From positions 1 through 5,669 of the IMG/VR virus record IMGVR_UViG_3300045988_000381: a stretch of 5,669 nucleotides of DNA; one strand, given 5' to 3'. The translations under genes and the position numbers were made by a program. Of the stretch, positions 216 to 5,669 are shown piece after piece. Source of the stretch: a virus. The notes beneath the pieces were generated by a model. It was not told the DNA's origin, ran no database searches, and worked only from the letters and a program-made list of their open reading frames with translations. Each line of letters opens with the position of its first letter. The stretch's first letter is position 1.

Positions 216-608
216 TTACACCCCCTTTCTGTATGTTTTGGTACGTGTGTCGATGTGTACCCATGTATTGTATACGATTATGCCACATCCAAGTGGAATG
301 ATTTTGTTCAGTTTGTTGGCAATTTCTTTTGCGGTCATGCCTCCAATCCGAATGTCTGCCGCCATTCCTCGCATGTGGTATGAGTACTTTGCACCACCTA
401 CCTCTTTATTCCTTGTCGGCGTCCTGTATCCGCTGTTTATGTATACCGGTTTTCCGACTTGGTTTCTAAGGATATCTAGAATGGATACTAAATAGTCATC
501 GATGAAAACTACTTGCGAACCGTCTTTGCACGCAAATTCTCGTACTTTGAAGTGCTGCCCTACTTTTTCATTTGCGTCTGTATCCATGATATAGCATTTG
601 ATCGCCAT
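216..608 (-). CDS. Zinc D-Ala-D-Ala carboxypeptidase-fold peptidoglycan hydrolase, Peptidase_M15_3-like (probable endolysin), 130 aa
   Basis: Signature SGYRTPTRNKEVGGAKYSYHMRGMAADI followed by WVHIDTR, matching the M15 H-x6-D ... H-x-D metal-ligand pattern (H78, D85, H118). SD GAGAGG (622..617) lies 8 nt before the ATG. There is no N-terminal signal peptide or transmembrane segment. Confidence 0.85.
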   Translation of the reverse strand: MAIKCYIMDTDANEKVGQHFKVREFACKDGSQVVFIDDYLVSILDILRNQVGKPVYINSGYRTPTRNKEVGGAKYSYHMRGMAADIRIGGMTAKEIANKLNKIIPLGCGIIVYNTWVHIDTRTKTYRKGV

Positions 609-632: not shown

Positions 633-661
633 ATTTTACCATTTTTTTAATTGCTTGTCAA
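633..661 (-). promoter_or_regulatory. Near-consensus sigma70/sigmaA promoter with extended -10, driving the peptidase gene and probably the whole genome transcript
   Basis: The minus strand reads TTGACA (661..656), a 17-nt spacer AGCAATTAAAAAAATGG (655..639), then TAAAAT (638..633). TGG immediately before the -10 gives the TGn extended -10. An A-rich UP-like tract CAAACCAAAAAACAA lies just upstream (676..662). The predicted start is near 625..628, leaving a leader of about 18 nt that contains the SD. Confidence 0.7.
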
Positions 662-752
662 TTGTTTTTTGGTTTGAATGGCGCTTTAGCGCCTTGCCGT
701 ATGGAGCGTAGCGGAATTCGGCTTAATCCATTCCTTTTTAGCGCTGTGCGCG

Positions 753-791
753 TTTTCAACACTTTCAACACTTTCAACAGGTTTTCAACAA
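753..791. repeat. Iteron cluster A: four copies of TTTCAACA (TGTTGAAA on the coding strand)
   Basis: Exact octamers start at 754, 763, 772 and 783, with spacing 9, 9 and 11 nt. Segment 761..791 is identical to 825..855. Confidence 0.9.
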
Positions 792-824
792 AATGTTGCA
801 CAATGATTTTCGTCATTTTGACGG

Positions 825-866
825 ACTTTCAACACTTTCAACAGGTTTTCAACAATTTTTTCAACG
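825..866. repeat. Iteron cluster B: three copies of TTTCAACA plus one TTTCAACG
   Basis: Octamers start at 827, 836, 847 and 859, with spacing 9, 11 and 12 nt. Segment 825..855 is a perfect 31-bp copy of 761..791, offset by 64 nt. Confidence 0.9.
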
Positions 867-962
867 CTGTTTTTTGCTTGTTTTTAACGTATTATCTTTA
901 TAAATTTATATTTTTTAACTTTTCCACGTACTCTACTACTACGTCTACAACAAGTTAATATA

Positions 963-1008
963 ATATACGCGTGCATGCGTGCGCGTTACGTGCGCGCGTG
1001 CGCGCGTA
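963..1008. repeat. CG-rich alternating purine-pyrimidine tract (24 + 22 nt, one phase shift at T986/T987) with three copies of CGTGCGCG; Z-DNA-prone and hairpin-forming
   Basis: Perfect Pu-Py alternation over 963..986 and Py-Pu over 987..1008. CGTGCGCG occurs at 978..985, 989..996 and 997..1004. Positions 966..985 pair with 989..1008 (16 Watson-Crick pairs plus 4 G.T). Confidence 0.8.
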
Positions 1009-1055: not shown

Positions 1056-2075
1056 TTAGAGTGTTCCTTTCTTCTTCGTTTGCTTCTTGATCACCCTTTC
1101 TTTTGTCTTGCATTGCTCTGCAAAGTCTGCATTTTCATACTTTAGCCGGCTTTCTGCTATGGCTGCTGTTTGTCTGTTTTGTTTGATTCTCCATAGCCTT
1201 TGTGGGTTTTCGGTTTCCATCATTTTTTCATAATAACGTGGAATTTGTGCGTGTTTTCCGTTTGTACATTGGATGTATCCTTGTCTCCATATTTTTTCTT
1301 TGTGCTCTTGGTAATAGTGGTCTCCCAGTCCTGGTTTCAGGCTCATACATGCGAACGGCTTTTGTTGGCCTAGTTCGTAGTATTGGTTTGCTTTCTTTCC
1401 GTCTATTTCGTACATTTTTTTCGTGACGTATCCCGCAACATATCTGTATGTTTCTGGTACTGCTTGTGCTATCTGTATTTGACCCATGCCCCATAGATCT
1501 GTTAGCCATTTACTTTTGAAGTATCCGTTGTGTTGTATCTTGTACAGGTGTTTCAGGTCTGTTGGTTTCCATCCATACAATATCATGTGGTAGTGCGGTC
1601 TCGCTGTCTGTTCTCCATACTCTCCCGCTATAAAATAGCGTAATTTGCCCCTGTAAGCCTTTCTGAGACGTTTTAGGAACTTTTGAACGTCAGTATATAG
1701 TAACGTTTGTACGCTTTCAGGCGTTTTTTCTCCCGGCTTCCAGACGTATTGCACTTTTCGCATGAGTTCACCTGTTTTGATGATCATACCTGGTACATGG
1801 TCATCATCATACGTTAGCGTTATAAACCATACTTCTTCTTCTGGATAGTCTCGTGCTTCTAATTCTATACGTGTTGCCCAGTCCTCTCTTTGTCTTATTC
1901 TGCATCCGATGCACTGCCCGCATGGTATCAACATTACATCTTTTCGAAACATTAGGTCTTCATATTTTACCTGTCTTCCCGCTAACTGAGAATAGCGGGA
2001 GAGTGAATACACCCTCCCGCTAATGTCTTTGTCGTTAGGGTTGTACAGCCGTATTAACGGTTTGTAACAACTCAT
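1056..2075 (-). CDS. VP4: Replication initiator protein VP4 (HUH rolling-circle endonuclease, phiX174 gpA-like), 339 aa
   Basis: Motifs present are FITLTY, the HUH motif [10 protein letters not shown], and the double-tyrosine motif YVAGYVTKK (as I recall it, phiX174 gpA has YVAKYVNK). The Cys cluster CGQCIGCR is typical of gokushovirus VP4. The ATGA overlap with the VP2 stop spans 2075..2072. Confidence 0.93.
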
Positions 2076-2965
2076 TTCAGATAGTCACCCGGCTTTCTCT
2101 TTTCTCCATATGATCCTGTTTTGTCTTGTGGTTTCATTTCTCGGCTTTCTCCTGTTTTTGGCTTGTTTCTTCCAGCGCCTCCGGCCGCTCCCGGCACTGT
2201 GTCTTCTGTCTTTTGCATTTGCTTGTATGTTTTGAGTAAATCTTCTGTTAGTTGTTTTGGGCTGCTGTAGCTTGTGCTCATTTGGCTTCCCACGGCTTCA
2301 GCGAGTTGATACCATTGGCTTTGGCTTTCTGATTTGCTGTAATAGCTGTTTGGTACGTTGCCTGACATTGTTGACACGCCCAGTGCACTTGCTGATGGCA
2401 TTCCCATGCTTGCACCTGTAATGGTTGCGCCTGCTCCGCCCGGCGTGCTTGCTCCACCTTGTGCGTATGCTAGGATAGGGTTTAAGCCTGCTTTTTTCAT
2501 GTCTTCTACAGCTCTTTGATAGCTTGTGTTGCTCATGCGCTCTTGGAACTGCCTGTTTGCTAGCGCTTCTGCGCTGTTGTAGTTCATTGCCGCATTTTGC
2601 TCGATATGGTTATAAATGCCCTGCTGGATTGCTCCTAACGTATTATAACCCATCTGGAGTAACATATTTTGGCGGTTTGTTTTGCTCTGGAAGTCGTTTT
2701 GACCGCCTTGCCAATTATAGAATTGTTTTAGGTATTCTTGAATCTGCTGGTCATTAGTTCCACCTTCGCTACTGCTGCTGCTTTGTCCTCCCCCTTGGCT
2801 TTGGCTTTGGTTGAACCCTTGGCTTTGGCTTTGGCTTTGCTGTCCGTATAGTCCTTGAAGGCCTTTTCCTGCTAAGGTCATTGCTCCTGTGATCAGTTGC
2901 GGATTTGCTGCTGCCCATTGTAAGCCTTTTGCAGCTATTCCGCCGATTGTTGATAGTACTCCCAT
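2072..2965 (-). CDS. VP2: Minor capsid / DNA pilot protein VP2, 297 aa
   Basis: Contains the gokushovirus VP2 motif [20 protein letters not shown]. The N-terminus is Gly/Ala-rich, followed by an SQ low-complexity linker. The gene sits between VP1 and VP4. Confidence 0.85.
2792..2840 (-). repeat. Tandem GGCTTT hexamers and a 19-nt direct repeat inside VP2, encoding the (SQ)n/Gly/Ser low-complexity segment
   Basis: CCCTTGGCTTTGGCTTTGG occurs at 2792..2810 and again at 2816..2834, a 24-nt (8-codon) period. It translates to [18 protein letters not shown] (VP2 residues about 43-60). Confidence 0.85.
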
Positions 2966-3003: not shown

Positions 3004-4671
3004 TTACAGTTTATACAGCCCAGGTACGCTGTACAACGGCATGCAGCGTGTGGTTTTGTTCGCCACGCGGATTGCTCCGAAGAATTGCGGCTCGTTCTGT
3101 ACGATGAGTGTTCTTGCGATTTCGGTTTTTTCTTCTGTCATCCATTCCTGAGACAGTGTTGGTACGGTTTTGTAGTTGTCTGCATAGTGCCAGAAGTCCA
3201 ACGTGCCTGTTGCGTTGCTTCTCATGAGGCCGCTTACTCGGTTGGGCTTCATTCGGTAATCGGCCCATGCTTCCTGATAGCCAAATGTCTCTTCGTCACT
3301 TGACGTGCCAGTTAGCATGATTTCCTTTTTCTTTACCGGCTGTTCGCCGAGGTTTGCAAACTGTGGTACGTAGTAGTCCAGACGGTCTATTCTGCTCCAG
3401 AATCGTTCAAGGCCTTGCTGGTACGTTCTGCTGTGACGTACGCACATGACGCCAATAACAAATCCGTGTTCTTCAAAGCTCTTCGTGAAGGAGCTTTCGT
3501 TGATAGGTGTTACGGACATTGCGCCGGTTTCACCAATTGGCGTATCGTTTGCACTCTGCTGTCCGCTTGTCTGCACGATCTGGTTCATTCCAACTCGATA
3601 TCGTCCACCGCCCAGGTATTCCGGAATCTGTACCGTTTTGTCGCTGATGGTTACATTCCACAGTGTCTGTACCTGTTCACGGTATCTACTGCCGCCTCGT
3701 GCCATTGCTTCATAGTACTGCTGCACTGCAATTGCGTTTCGCAATTCGTTGATGGTTGCTGCTGTGATGCTTCCAAGGTCTGTTCCGAGATATGCCGTTT
3801 CGGTGCTTTGAAGCGAGGTGCTCGATACTATTGCCGGTCTTTTTCCGGCTGTTTCTACCGTATTGTAAATTTCTCCGTTCTGGTACAGTTTGATTGTGTC
3901 TGCTCCAGCCTTTTCTTGGGTCAGTCCGATATCTTCATACAGTTTTACTGCCGCATTGCCTTGCATTGGTAGTGCCACTTCCGGCCCTCGCTGAGGATAA
4001 GGCAAACAGCTCGAAAAGTAGTCGTGGAAACGGTTCACAGGCAGGCAAAAGCCTCCTTTGATTGCGTTTTTCAGAATCGTTTCTAGGCTTACCCCTTCTT
4101 CTGACCCTCCTGTTCCTCCTCCTACCGCAAACTCTTGGTTTGCGCTTTTTGTTTCTAACACTGCTTCATTTTCTACGTTTTGATCTCTGAAAAATTCGTT
4201 CCAGATCTTTACGTATGCTCTTACTGGCAATGCGTTGACGCTGAATGTTCCTTTAACTTTTGTCGGAATTCCCATGTAGTCCAGTATTGTTCGTTCGTAC
4301 GGTTTTGGCTGTTCGTTTGTTCCTTTGATTACGATTTGCGGTACACTGTACGTTGTTGTGGGCATCCATGGCTTATTATCCACTTCCCCCATGAACCGTT
4401 TGAAGTCGTCCCACAGGATACGGTTTGGACAATAGAAGTAGTAGAAATCGATGAAAGCGTCATCCATCACCGGATATTTCGGTGTGGTCATGCGGATGAT
4501 TGCACTCGTATCGATTTGGAATGTGTCTCCCGGCAACACCTCGTCTACAAAGAACGGAATAAGTTTGCCGCTGTCGAATGTGGTCAGAATTGTCTGATCA
4601 CGGTTGAATCGTGTTCGGCTTGTGTGCATCTGCGGCACTTGCAAGAAGTGTCTTTCATTGTTTCTATTCAT
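3004..4671 (-). CDS. VP1: Major capsid protein VP1 (Microviridae F-like capsid protein), 555 aa
   Basis: The N-terminal region [12 protein letters not shown] ... [24 protein letters not shown] matches the conserved microvirus capsid pattern. The size is typical of gokushovirus VP1. SD AAAGGAGTG lies upstream, and the ATGA overlap with the VP3 stop spans 4671..4668. Confidence 0.95.
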
Positions 4672-5066
4672 TCTGCTGTTTCACTCCTTTCTGCTGGTTT
4701 TTCTTCCTGTACTTTGCTCTGTTCTTCCAGCTTTTTGAGCTTCATTGCGTTTACCTGTGCGGTCGCTACCATCTGATGATATTCATGGATGTTCTGCGGC
4801 CATTCGGTCGTGTCCATTTCTACGCCATCCATAGCGCCTTGCGACAGGCTTTTCAGGAATTCCGGGTCGAAACTTGCCTTCCGGACAATGTTTTTGATGT
4901 CGCATTCGTCCGAATAGCTTTCAATTTCCTGCTGGATGTCGATTGGTTCGGTTTCCTGCAGTACTTCCTGGTCTTTTTCGTTCTTCGTCCAGACGTATTG
5001 CCTTCGTTTCTTTTCGCCTGGATTCGAAAAAAAGGGCTCTCGCCCTTTTTCGTATCGTTTATTCAT
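4668..5066 (-). CDS. VP3: Internal scaffolding protein VP3, 132 aa from ATG 5066
   Basis: The conserved scaffold motif SDECDIKNIVRKA is present and the gene lies immediately upstream of VP1. The ORF-track start at 5171 is a TTG codon with no SD and a 113-nt overlap with the upstream gene. ATG 5066..5064 has the SD GGGAGGG (5081..5075) and overlaps the upstream stop as ATGAATAA. Confidence 0.8.
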   Translation of the reverse strand: MNKRYEKGREPFFSNPGEKKRRQYVWTKNEKDQEVLQETEPIDIQQEIESYSDECDIKNIVRKASFDPEFLKSLSQGAMDGVEMDTTEWPQNIHEYHQMVATAQVNAMKLKKLEEQSKVQEEKPAERSETAE

Positions 5067-5298
5067 TTGGTCTGCCCTCCCATACCTTTTCGGTATCGTT
5101 TGTGAACGTTCCAAGCTCGTCTTCGAACGTTGCCAGCTTAAAGCCGGTGTAATCCTCAGGACTCTGCCCAATGAACGTTGCCTTGTCCTTTGCCATCACG
5201 TTGCACATGCGTGCAAAGGTTTCGTTGTTTTTGCTTTCGCCTACCCATGCGTAGCATTTTGCTACGTTGTCCCATACGCCATAGTATTCATGTTTCAT
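5059..5298 (-). CDS. Small non-structural protein, 79 aa, in the position of gokushovirus ORF5/VP5
   Basis: SD AAAGGGA lies 8 nt upstream of ATG 5298. The N-terminal pattern YGVWDNVAKCYAWV...NNETFARM resembles the small protein found between VP4 and VP3 in gokushoviruses. That similarity is from memory and was not searched. Confidence 0.55.
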   Translation of the reverse strand: MKHEYYGVWDNVAKCYAWVGESKNNETFARMCNVMAKDKATFIGQSPEDYTGFKLATFEDELGTFTNDTEKVWEGRPNE

Positions 5299-5439: not shown

Positions 5440-5650
5440 CGGTGTACTCCCTTCTGATCAGTTCCATTTCGATTGCGTTTGCAAAACTTTTCTCCCGCCA
5501 GATTTCTTCCAGCACAATTTTTGCATCTTCTATGTTGCTTAGCTTTCGTAGCATTTTATATCCAGCGTTGATTTCTTTGTATTTTTTTTCAAGGAGGCGT
5601 TTTAGTGATTCTTCGGGCTGGTCTCGTATATTCCATGTTTTGTGCATCAT
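5423..5650 (-). CDS. Hypothetical 75-aa protein, predicted all-helical, charged, no transmembrane segment; spans the circular junction
   Basis: The ORF begins MMHKTW with an SD AAAGGAA 8 nt upstream (seen in the copy at 71..84). Its 3' end is coupled to the basic-protein gene. I recognise no family. Confidence 0.55.
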   Translation of the reverse strand: MMHKTWNIRDQPEESLKRLLEKKYKEINAGYKMLRKLSNIEDAKIVLEEIWREKSFANAIEMELIRREYTDGTAS

Positions 5651-5669
5651 TGTTGTGTTCCTTTCCAGG
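5581..5669. repeat. Terminal redundancy, copy 2 (identical to 1..89)
   Basis: Same comparison as for copy 1. Confidence 0.95.

Follow-up and report, generated by a model that had tools for sequence, protein, structure and literature searches.

The stretch of DNA analysed here, which we call the window (5,669 nt; IMG/VR record IMGVR_UViG_3300045988_000381), is the complete circular genome of a gut gokushovirus, in which positions 5581-5669 duplicate positions 1-89. All of its genes lie on the minus strand, hereafter the coding strand (Table 1). The gene for VP4, the rolling-circle initiator, is intact and contains the HUH and YxxxY motifs, so rolling-circle replication is presumably retained. 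VP4 and the peptidase gene are separated by 447 nt of non-coding DNA, and an array of short direct repeats is located in this spacer. The window's best promoter match (TTGACA-17-TAAAAT plus an upstream TG, 661-633 on the minus strand, 11/12) lies nearby, with the array 92-205 nt upstream of its -35 element. This bears out an initial reading of the DNA, made from its sequence alone (the sequence-only reading), which had placed the array upstream of a strong promoter. Two open reading frames overlap the array, 658-816 on the minus and 662-958 on the plus strand. Neither has a Pfam match, and a coding role was rejected because the region accommodates inversion as well as indels whose length is not divisible by three. 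Elsewhere in the window, a TTGGCT hexamer repeat of 7.5 copies within VP2 (2795-2839) gives rise to a low-complexity QSQSQ stretch.

Table 1. Genes of the window, parts of the oriC-like cassette and neighbouring features.
Feature	Position	Strand	Description
Peptidase M15 gene	216-608	-	
Sigma-70-type promoter of the peptidase M15 gene	633..661	-	Cassette neighbour, outside the cassette
Whole oriC-like cassette	752..965	+	214 nt; delimited by the segment inverted in close relatives
Distal cluster 1 of putative DnaA boxes	753..790	+	TTTTCAACA 753, CTTTCAACA 762, CTTTCAACA 771, TTTTCAACA 782
Inverted half-box CAACA-aaa-TGTTG	786..798		Inner edge of cluster 1
Small palindrome CGTCAttttGACG	811..823		Between the box clusters
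Distal cluster 2 of putative DnaA boxes	826..866	+	CTTTCAACA 826, CTTTCAACA 835, TTTTCAACA 846, TTTTCAACG 858
A/T-rich spacer, distal clusters to proximal boxes	867..910		Length of about 45-50 nt conserved in alignment
Putative proximal tandem DnaA-box pair TTTTTAACT / TTTTCCACG	912..928	+	8-nt phase, one T common to both
Spacer TACT, proximal box to first trio	929..932	+	4 nt
Putative DnaA-trios CTACTACTACGTCTA	933..947	-	Plus strand CTA CTA CTA CGT CTA; minus strand 3'-GAT GAT GAT GCA GAT-5'
AT-rich zone	948..967		85% A+T, begins with CAACAAGTTA; predicted duplex-opening site
GC-rich alternating purine/pyrimidine tract	968..1006		Borders the cassette; pairs with 745-752 (TGTGCGCG) as an imperfect inverted repeat
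Hairpin directly 3' of the VP4 stop codon	1013..1046	-	Likely terminator; cassette neighbour
VP4 gene (rolling-circle initiator)	1056-2075	-	
VP2 gene	2072-2965	-	
VP1 capsid protein gene	3004-4671	-	
Scaffold protein gene	4668-5171	-	
ORF5	5059-5298	-	

Seven exact copies of TTTCAACA, all on the plus strand, start at 754, 763, 772, 783, 827, 836 and 847, and there are none elsewhere in the window; an eighth repeat, TTTCAACG, starts at 859. Shuffled sequences contained TTTCAACA 0.36 times on average, and none of 200 shuffles reached seven copies. Start-to-start spacings are 9, 9 and 11 nt in the first cluster and 9, 11 and 12 nt in the second, with Tandem Repeats Finder reporting a period of 9 at 754-779 and of 12 at 836-873. 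The eight phased repeats are therefore present as the sequence-only reading had described them, together with the inverted half-site it had pointed out at 786-798 (CAACAaaaTGTTG). The 31-bp duplication on which it had also remarked is real: segment 761-791, the first 31 nt of repeat family D1, is identical to 825-855. This duplication is private to the window genome, however. Two perfect copies occur in no other fetched genome, and L001, with a VP4 99% identical to that of the window, already shows one mismatch. The perfect identity is thus a recent conversion over an old, conserved eight-box layout.

A duplication found in a single genome, and a copy number that ranges from 4 to 9 among relatives, could be taken to mean that the repeats are functionless products of recent replication slippage. 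We find this barely credible, given that the eight-position layout and the box sequence are kept in more than 130 genomes, at VP4 identities down to 36%. Absence of the repeats from near-identical relatives had been named as the sign of such slippage; it is only the perfect 31-nt copy that is missing from these relatives, while the array itself is kept.

The repeats form part of a larger element. The coordinates first assigned to the array (753-866) cover only a portion of a structure that extends from 752 to about 967, and the proximal box pair, the DnaA-trios and the AT-rich zone (912-967) had been overlooked. The limits of the element follow from comparison with close relatives: in blastn against L005, L030 and L026, the segment at coding-strand positions 136-349, corresponding to window 752-965, aligned in the minus orientation with 73-79% identity, between flanks that are collinear at 86-95%. 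On the plus strand, the parts occur in relatives in a constant order of three to four boxes, the inverted half-box and palindrome, a further three to four boxes, an A/T-rich spacer of about 45 nt, the tandem box pair, 4 nt, CTACTACTAC(NN)CTA, CAACAAGTTA[AT]AT and more A/T-rich sequence; the corresponding parts of the window are 753-790, 786-823, 826-866, 867-910, 912-928, 929-932, 933-947 and 948-967. When 33 diverse modules are aligned, conservation reaches at least 90% in the boxes, proximal pair, trios and CAACAAGTTA, as against 30-70% in spacers and flanks.

Cluster 2 consists in relatives of four boxes at the same positions in other variants (ATTCAACA, TTTTCCACA, TTATCCACA), and at the iteron positions TTTTCCACA and even the canonical DnaA box TTATCCACA are encountered. 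The palindrome is kept in many relatives, for example as CGTCATAATGACG. The proximal pair conforms to T[TA][TA]TCAAC-TTTTC[CA]AC[ATG] in 83 of 93 genomes, with the box at the 920-928 position reading TTTTCCACA or TTTTCAACA, and relatives carry five or six trios. In the window, the upstream proximal box TTTTTAACT is degraded and the fourth trio (CGT) has no central A when read on the trio strand. One relative, L259, contains a tandem duplication of the proximal box-pair region (alignment columns 340-400), which shows the cassette to be prone to internal duplication.

Conservation extends well beyond the closest relatives. The spacer is kept in 49 GenBank gokushoviruses of faecal origin (human, pig, monkey, mink and others), in whose records the matching region either has no annotation or is called no more than hypothetical. 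The comparison with IMG/VR covered 80 relatives whose VP4 is 87-99% identical to that of the window; with one exception, every locus that reaches far enough holds 4-9 copies of the repeat. The exception is L014, an 8.8-kb contig without boxes that runs into unrelated DNA from about 120 nt after the VP4 stop (4110-4900); it reflects an insertion in the spacer or else a chimeric assembly, and is consequently uninformative. A scan of IMG/VR for triple TTTCAACA recovered at least 119 contigs, most of them microvirus-sized, in which the boxes and unwinding module are the same at VP4 identities of 36-92% and VP1 identities of 38-91%. Altogether, the cassette was found in over 130 microvirus genomes, among which identity to the VP4 of the window ranges from 36 to 100%. 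The array is far above chance and present in essentially all relatives that reach the region, and it is under selection. This conservation supports the proposal, made in the sequence-only reading, of a phased protein-binding array.

The position and orientation of the cassette are less constant than its content. It adopts three arrangements, for which the counts include some duplicates as some contigs were fetched twice: in about 112 genomes it follows VP4 in the orientation of the window, the trio strand being the coding strand; in 11 genomes it follows VP4 in inverted orientation; and in 15 genomes it is found in the VP2-VP4 interval, some 100 nt upstream of where VP4 starts. VP4 of this last clade is only 36-41% identical to that of the window. 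Inversion in place has occurred in relatives with VP4 about 90% identical (L002, L005, L019, L026, L027 and L030), where the inverted segment is bounded by the imperfect inverted repeat TGTGCGCG / CGCGTGCA. Two orientations and two positions imply a function that is independent of the neighbouring promoter and of the direction of transcription, and argue for an autonomous, portable cis module. The suggestion that the element is tied to the promoter is accordingly abandoned. Of the surrounding sequence, the interval between the M15 promoter and the cassette (662-752) is kept in relatives whichever way round their cassette lies, and includes at 680-693 a GC hairpin, GGCGCTTTAGCGCC, without a T-run on its 3' side. 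On the other side, the Z-DNA-prone tract CGCGTGCATGCGTGCGCGTTACGTGCGCGCGTGCGCGCG (968-1006) abuts the AT-rich end of the cassette; some relatives have other GC-rich sequence in its place.

Portability also bears on whether the region might be read by another host regulator, or serve in single-stranded form. The repeat core TGTTGAA is one mismatch from the Spo0A box TGNCGAA, as had been noted, and a non-coding region in an ssDNA phage is a plausible place for a single-strand origin of complementary-strand synthesis. Yet TGNCGAA occurs in the window at chance level (4 found against 3.0 expected) and on none of the iterons. Furthermore, the sequence from 745 to 970 is not unusually structured as single-stranded DNA (z = -1.35), no known RNA family from Rfam was matched in the window, and inversion of the cassette would destroy a strand-specific element. 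The strong folding of the spacer as a whole is probably an effect of the VP4 terminator hairpin, which persists in the centroid structure. We therefore consider Spo0A-type boxes or a single-strand origin highly improbable.

The classical gokushoviruses Chp2, phiMH2K and SpV4 contain no boxes, trios or CAACAAGTTA, so that the module counts as an acquisition of the gut lineage and not as an ancestral or universal gokushovirus origin. A version of the module with canonical TTATCCACA was not seen in microviruses: all 17 of its IMG/VR matches lie on contigs of 8.7-162 kb. Additionally, eight non-microvirus IMG/VR contigs of 8-77 kb (L226, L231, L266, L268, L277, L313, L314 and L324) carry 10-15 TTTCAACA boxes and have neither a trio module nor dnaA or dnaN in the vicinity; DnaA boxes may also be collected by other phages that share these hosts.

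Motif searches of the kind originally proposed recovered arrays from bacterial genomes as well as from related microviruses. With one genome per bacterial species, three adjacent copies of TTTCAACA were found at a minimum of 120 loci, many of them in Oscillospiraceae, Ruminococcus, Ruminococcaceae and other clostridia. None of the 120 loci listed encodes VP1 or VP4, and hence they are not prophages; dnaA is encoded at 13 of them. In L102, L111, L121, L142 and L165 the arrays fill the dnaA-dnaN spacer, with both genes confirmed by Pfam. Such spacers hold from 3 to about 21 copies, L121 having five and L111 and L165 20-21 within 600 nt. The box variants occur at similar frequencies in phage and host (TTTTCAACA, 29% versus 45%; CTTTCAACA, 26% versus 21%; TTTTCCACA, 8.8% versus 8.1%), and spacings of 9-12 nt are common to both, with the phage set also containing many 8-nt spacings. 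The half-box has its analogue in host origins, where a direct box is followed by an inverted TGTTGAAAA box and a small hairpin. The sequence-only reading had raised the possibility of DnaA boxes and counted the mismatch at a normally conserved C against it. These data support the DnaA reading, and the objection loses its force, since the same variant is used in the dnaA-dnaN origins of Ruminococcus and Oscillospiraceae.

Resemblance to these origins extends past the boxes. The ends of three bacterial origins read TTTTCCACA-GCCC-CTACTACTACTACTA-AAATAAATA (L142), GTTTCAACA-CCCC-CTACTACTACTACTA-TTTTATAAA (L165) and GTTTCAACA-TACC-CTACTACTACTACTA (L102), and the phage counterpart is TTTTCCACG-TACT-CTACTACTACGTCTA-CAACAAGTTAATATAATATA. 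Of 120 bacterial matches to the signature TTTC[AC]ACA-N4-CTACTACTAC, 108 are no more than 1.5 kb from dnaA or dnaN, comprising 11 of 14 for the A variant, mostly in clostridia, and 97 of 106 for the C variant, where Streptomyces and cyanobacteria are prominent among the matches listed. A comparable signature arose in one of 2000 shuffles of the window.

The initiator of the bacteria concerned differs in a corresponding manner. DnaA from bacteria with TTTCAACA-rich origins (L102, L111, L134, L142, L211, L212, L343, L362 and L371) has the recognition helix DHST(I/V)VY, whereas origins with TCCACA boxes are accompanied by the canonical helix DHTTVxH. In these genomes, the host initiator co-varies with the box variant. 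The DHST(I/V)VY helix is a possible structural basis of the C-to-A change at box position 6; the helix positions are ones that we take to correspond to the base-contacting Thr435 and His439 of the E. coli DnaA domain IV-DNA structure. The A-variant box is not confined to clostridia, as Mesoaciditoga/Athalassotoga MAGs of the Thermotogota (L118, L153, L180 and L146) contain 12-15 TTTTCAACA boxes within 600 nt, L118 and L153 also with a trio module such as TTTTCAACAGCCTTTACTACTATTACTA. A 36-nt tandem repeat with 21 copies of TTTCAACA in a Nitrosopumilus sequence (L144, 895-1142) appears unrelated to origins.

Short direct repeats about one helical turn apart and near the initiator gene are familiar from rolling-circle plasmids (the bind locus of pMV158) and CRESS-DNA viruses, where they serve as Rep iterons. 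The window could be read in the same way, as a small replicon that encodes an HUH Rep, with repeats of this spacing close to rep and an invariant phage-specific motif beside them; its likeness to host origins would then be coincidental, and VP4 or another phage protein, such as the orphan ORF products once put forward as binders, would recognise the repeats. Rep iterons normally co-vary with their Rep, however, and the cassette repeats do not: they stay constant while VP4 ranges from 36 to 100% identity. They equal the host DnaA box, and bacterial dnaA-dnaN origins are filled with this motif at the same spacing and in the same trio context, while classical gokushoviruses have a homologous VP4 without the repeats. 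We regard binding by VP4 or another phage protein as very unlikely. Both the constancy of the boxes against a changing VP4 and their occurrence in two orientations and two positions point to a host factor as the reader of the boxes.

The arrangement of the cassette corresponds closely to the bacterial basal unwinding system (BUS). This consists of a DnaA box with up to two mismatches, most often in a tandem pair, a 4-bp spacer element (4 bp on average, and most commonly about 13 bp from the upstream box), and at least three DnaA-trios with a central adenine and the consensus 3'-GAT-5', followed by an AT-rich region (Pelliciari 2021, PMC8287927). A distal box cluster raises the local concentration of DnaA (Richardson 2019, PMC6669920). 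In Clostridium difficile, DnaA-dependent melting has been shown at oriC2 in the dnaA-dnaN spacer, where the sequence CACCTACTACTATTACTACTA places CTA repeats after the boxes; oriC2 alone, without oriC1, did not melt in vitro (PMC7561715).

Each sequence-level feature of the BUS has a recognisable counterpart in the cassette. The proximal box TTTTCCACG (920-928) has two mismatches to TTATCCACA and is oriented towards the trios. Its tandem partner TTTTTAACT (912-920) has two mismatches to TTTTCAACA, and T[TA][TA]TCAACT is found in this place in 83 of 93 genomes. TACT separates the trios by 4 nt from the proximal box and by 12 nt from the end of the upstream box (920), within the 0-16 bp allowed for a BUS. 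Trios are consecutive (GAT GAT GAT GCA GAT, 933-947, against a minimum of three), and they are followed by a zone of 85% A+T (948-967). The location departs from the definition. A chromosomal BUS lies by dnaA and dnaN; the window element lies between phage VP4 and the peptidase gene, and so is a mimic or captured copy and not a chromosomal oriC.

In comparison with bacterial examples (B. subtilis incC DnaA-box#6/#7 with its trios, and clostridial oriC2), the phage cassette is alike in its same-sense boxes, tandem proximal pair, spacer of about 4 nt, three or more 3'-GAT-5' trios, AT-rich zone and distal cluster (PMC8287927, PMC6669920, PMC7561715). The Ruminococcus and Oscillospiraceae origins share with it the same box variant, the 4-nt spacer and CTA trios. 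It differs in belonging to a 5.6-kb ssDNA phage instead of a dnaA-dnaN interval, in being compressed to 214 nt, in an 8-nt phase of the proximal pair where host origins have 9, in the phage-only CAACAAGTTA after the trios, and in being portable, with both orientations and two positions.

Taken together, we interpret the TTTCAACA repeats as DnaA boxes of the variant used by the probable host group, forming the distal cluster of a 214-nt cassette (752-965) that mimics a bacterial origin, and we assign this reading a probability of about three in four. The host group is probably Oscillospiraceae/Ruminococcus clostridia. The sole copy of such a phage in the bacterial collection is a 5.7-kb contig binned with "Bacteroides sp. 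CAG:545"; the strong Shine-Dalgarno sites of the window (e.g. AAAGGAG before VP1) and its extended -10 promoter fit better with Firmicutes than with this label. If the repeats are read by DnaA, changing TTTCAACA to TTTGTTCA should abolish DnaA protection of the ten boxes.

DnaA might nonetheless bind without firing an origin, the cassette then acting as a DnaA sink that turns off initiation in the host, in the manner of datA titration, or as a DnaA-dependent switch for neighbouring phage promoters. Ten boxes on each replicative-form molecule at high copy would make a strong sink, and in the window a distance of 92 nt separates the array from the strong M15 promoter. A sink or operator, however, needs no conserved spaced pair, 4-nt spacer, five or more trios or AT-rich zone, and the position and orientation of the cassette relative to promoters are not conserved. 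We judge titration or switching unlikely. Against the origin-mimic reading itself stand the imperfect fourth trio, the degraded TTTTTAACT, the 8-nt phase, the dependence of oriC2 on oriC1, and the classical gokushoviruses that do without a cassette; nor does rolling-circle replication obviously need one.

One component of the cassette has no bacterial parallel. C..CTACAACAAGT follows three trios in 73 of 78 distinct phage cassettes, while CAACAAG was found in none of 42 bacterial origin tails, and in bacterial genomes the phage-specific motif was matched only by one phage-sized binned contig and one chance occurrence within a gene. As CAACAAGTTA falls in the predicted opening zone, it is the best candidate for a site of a phage protein such as VP4. 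In phiX174, another member of the Microviridae, the cis-acting replication elements are the 30-bp gpA site origin and the PriA assembly hairpin. The cassette differs from these, as phiX174 has no such repeats and the cassette is not a structured single-strand element. The best match in the window to the phiX174-type gpA origin CAACTTGATATTAATAAC is 12/18, which 193 of 200 shuffles equalled or exceeded. CAACAAGTTA could not be linked to the phiX174 nick site, since the AACTTG that the two share on the complementary strand is too short to serve as evidence.

We are able to propose a mechanism for the cassette. From the identity of the boxes with those of host origins, host DnaA would be expected to occupy them on the double-stranded replicative form. 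By analogy with B. subtilis and C. difficile, DnaA-ATP would then nucleate at the proximal pair and extend as a filament along the trio strand (the minus, coding strand of the window), and established origin biology predicts that this filament would open the adjoining AT-rich zone at 948-967. Speculatively, opening could start replication of the replicative form through host helicase loading or, alternatively, could expose single-stranded DNA to the HUH endonuclease VP4 at CAACAAGTTA. Side effects would include coupling of phage replication to the host DnaA-ATP level and titration of DnaA off the host origin, and plasmid-like persistence is a further, speculative by-product. More tentatively, and with rather less confidence than in the assignment of the boxes, the cassette may be a captured, working and portable host unwinding module, in which DnaA opening licenses a VP4 nick at CAACAAGTTA or DnaA controls persistence as a mini-chromosome. 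Under the first version, the orientation of the cassette would decide which strand is packaged; the second would give a plasmid-like carrier state without an integrase. Under either version, the box variant of an uncultured microvirus would be a tag from which its host could be read.

Among phages, the closest precedent comes from the T5-like group, in which the injection-stop region contains a conserved set of about eight DnaA boxes, including TTATCAACA variants, that has been described as reminiscent of oriC (bioRxiv 10.1101/866236). Both are phage-borne and conserved sets of similar size. The T5 boxes, however, form pairs within inverted repeats in a dsDNA phage, no trios or unwinding module have been described for them, and their proposed role is injection arrest and not replication. 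DnaA-recruiting box clusters outside oriC are well known from datA, the DnaA-box clusters of B. subtilis, and the P1 oriR, pSC101 and R6K A site. These titration loci and plasmid origins are not known to contain the module of box, 4-nt spacer, trios and AT-rich zone, and the P1, pSC101 and R6K origins also depend on an iteron-binding initiator of their own. In the literature accessible to searching we found no prior report of a DnaA box, DnaA or oriC in gokushoviruses, Microviridae or microviruses, and a search with the motif itself returned primer-type noise only. The kind of element is thus known, while a conserved, invertible Microviridae cassette with an added phage-specific motif appears to be undescribed.

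Microviruses serve as textbook examples of rolling-circle replication, for which their own Rep and a host helicase are considered sufficient. A conserved, host-matched DnaA module in a large gut gokushovirus group implies that replication or persistence includes a second step, dependent on the host initiator, and phage replication would be tied to the growth state of the host. The cassette could also explain long-term persistence in the gut without integration. The box variant and trio signature offer a clue, from sequence alone, to gut gokushovirus hosts, few of which have been identified, and for the window phage this clue points to Oscillospiraceae/Ruminococcus. Finally, the 214-nt candidate origin could serve as a minimal replicon for genetically recalcitrant clostridia.
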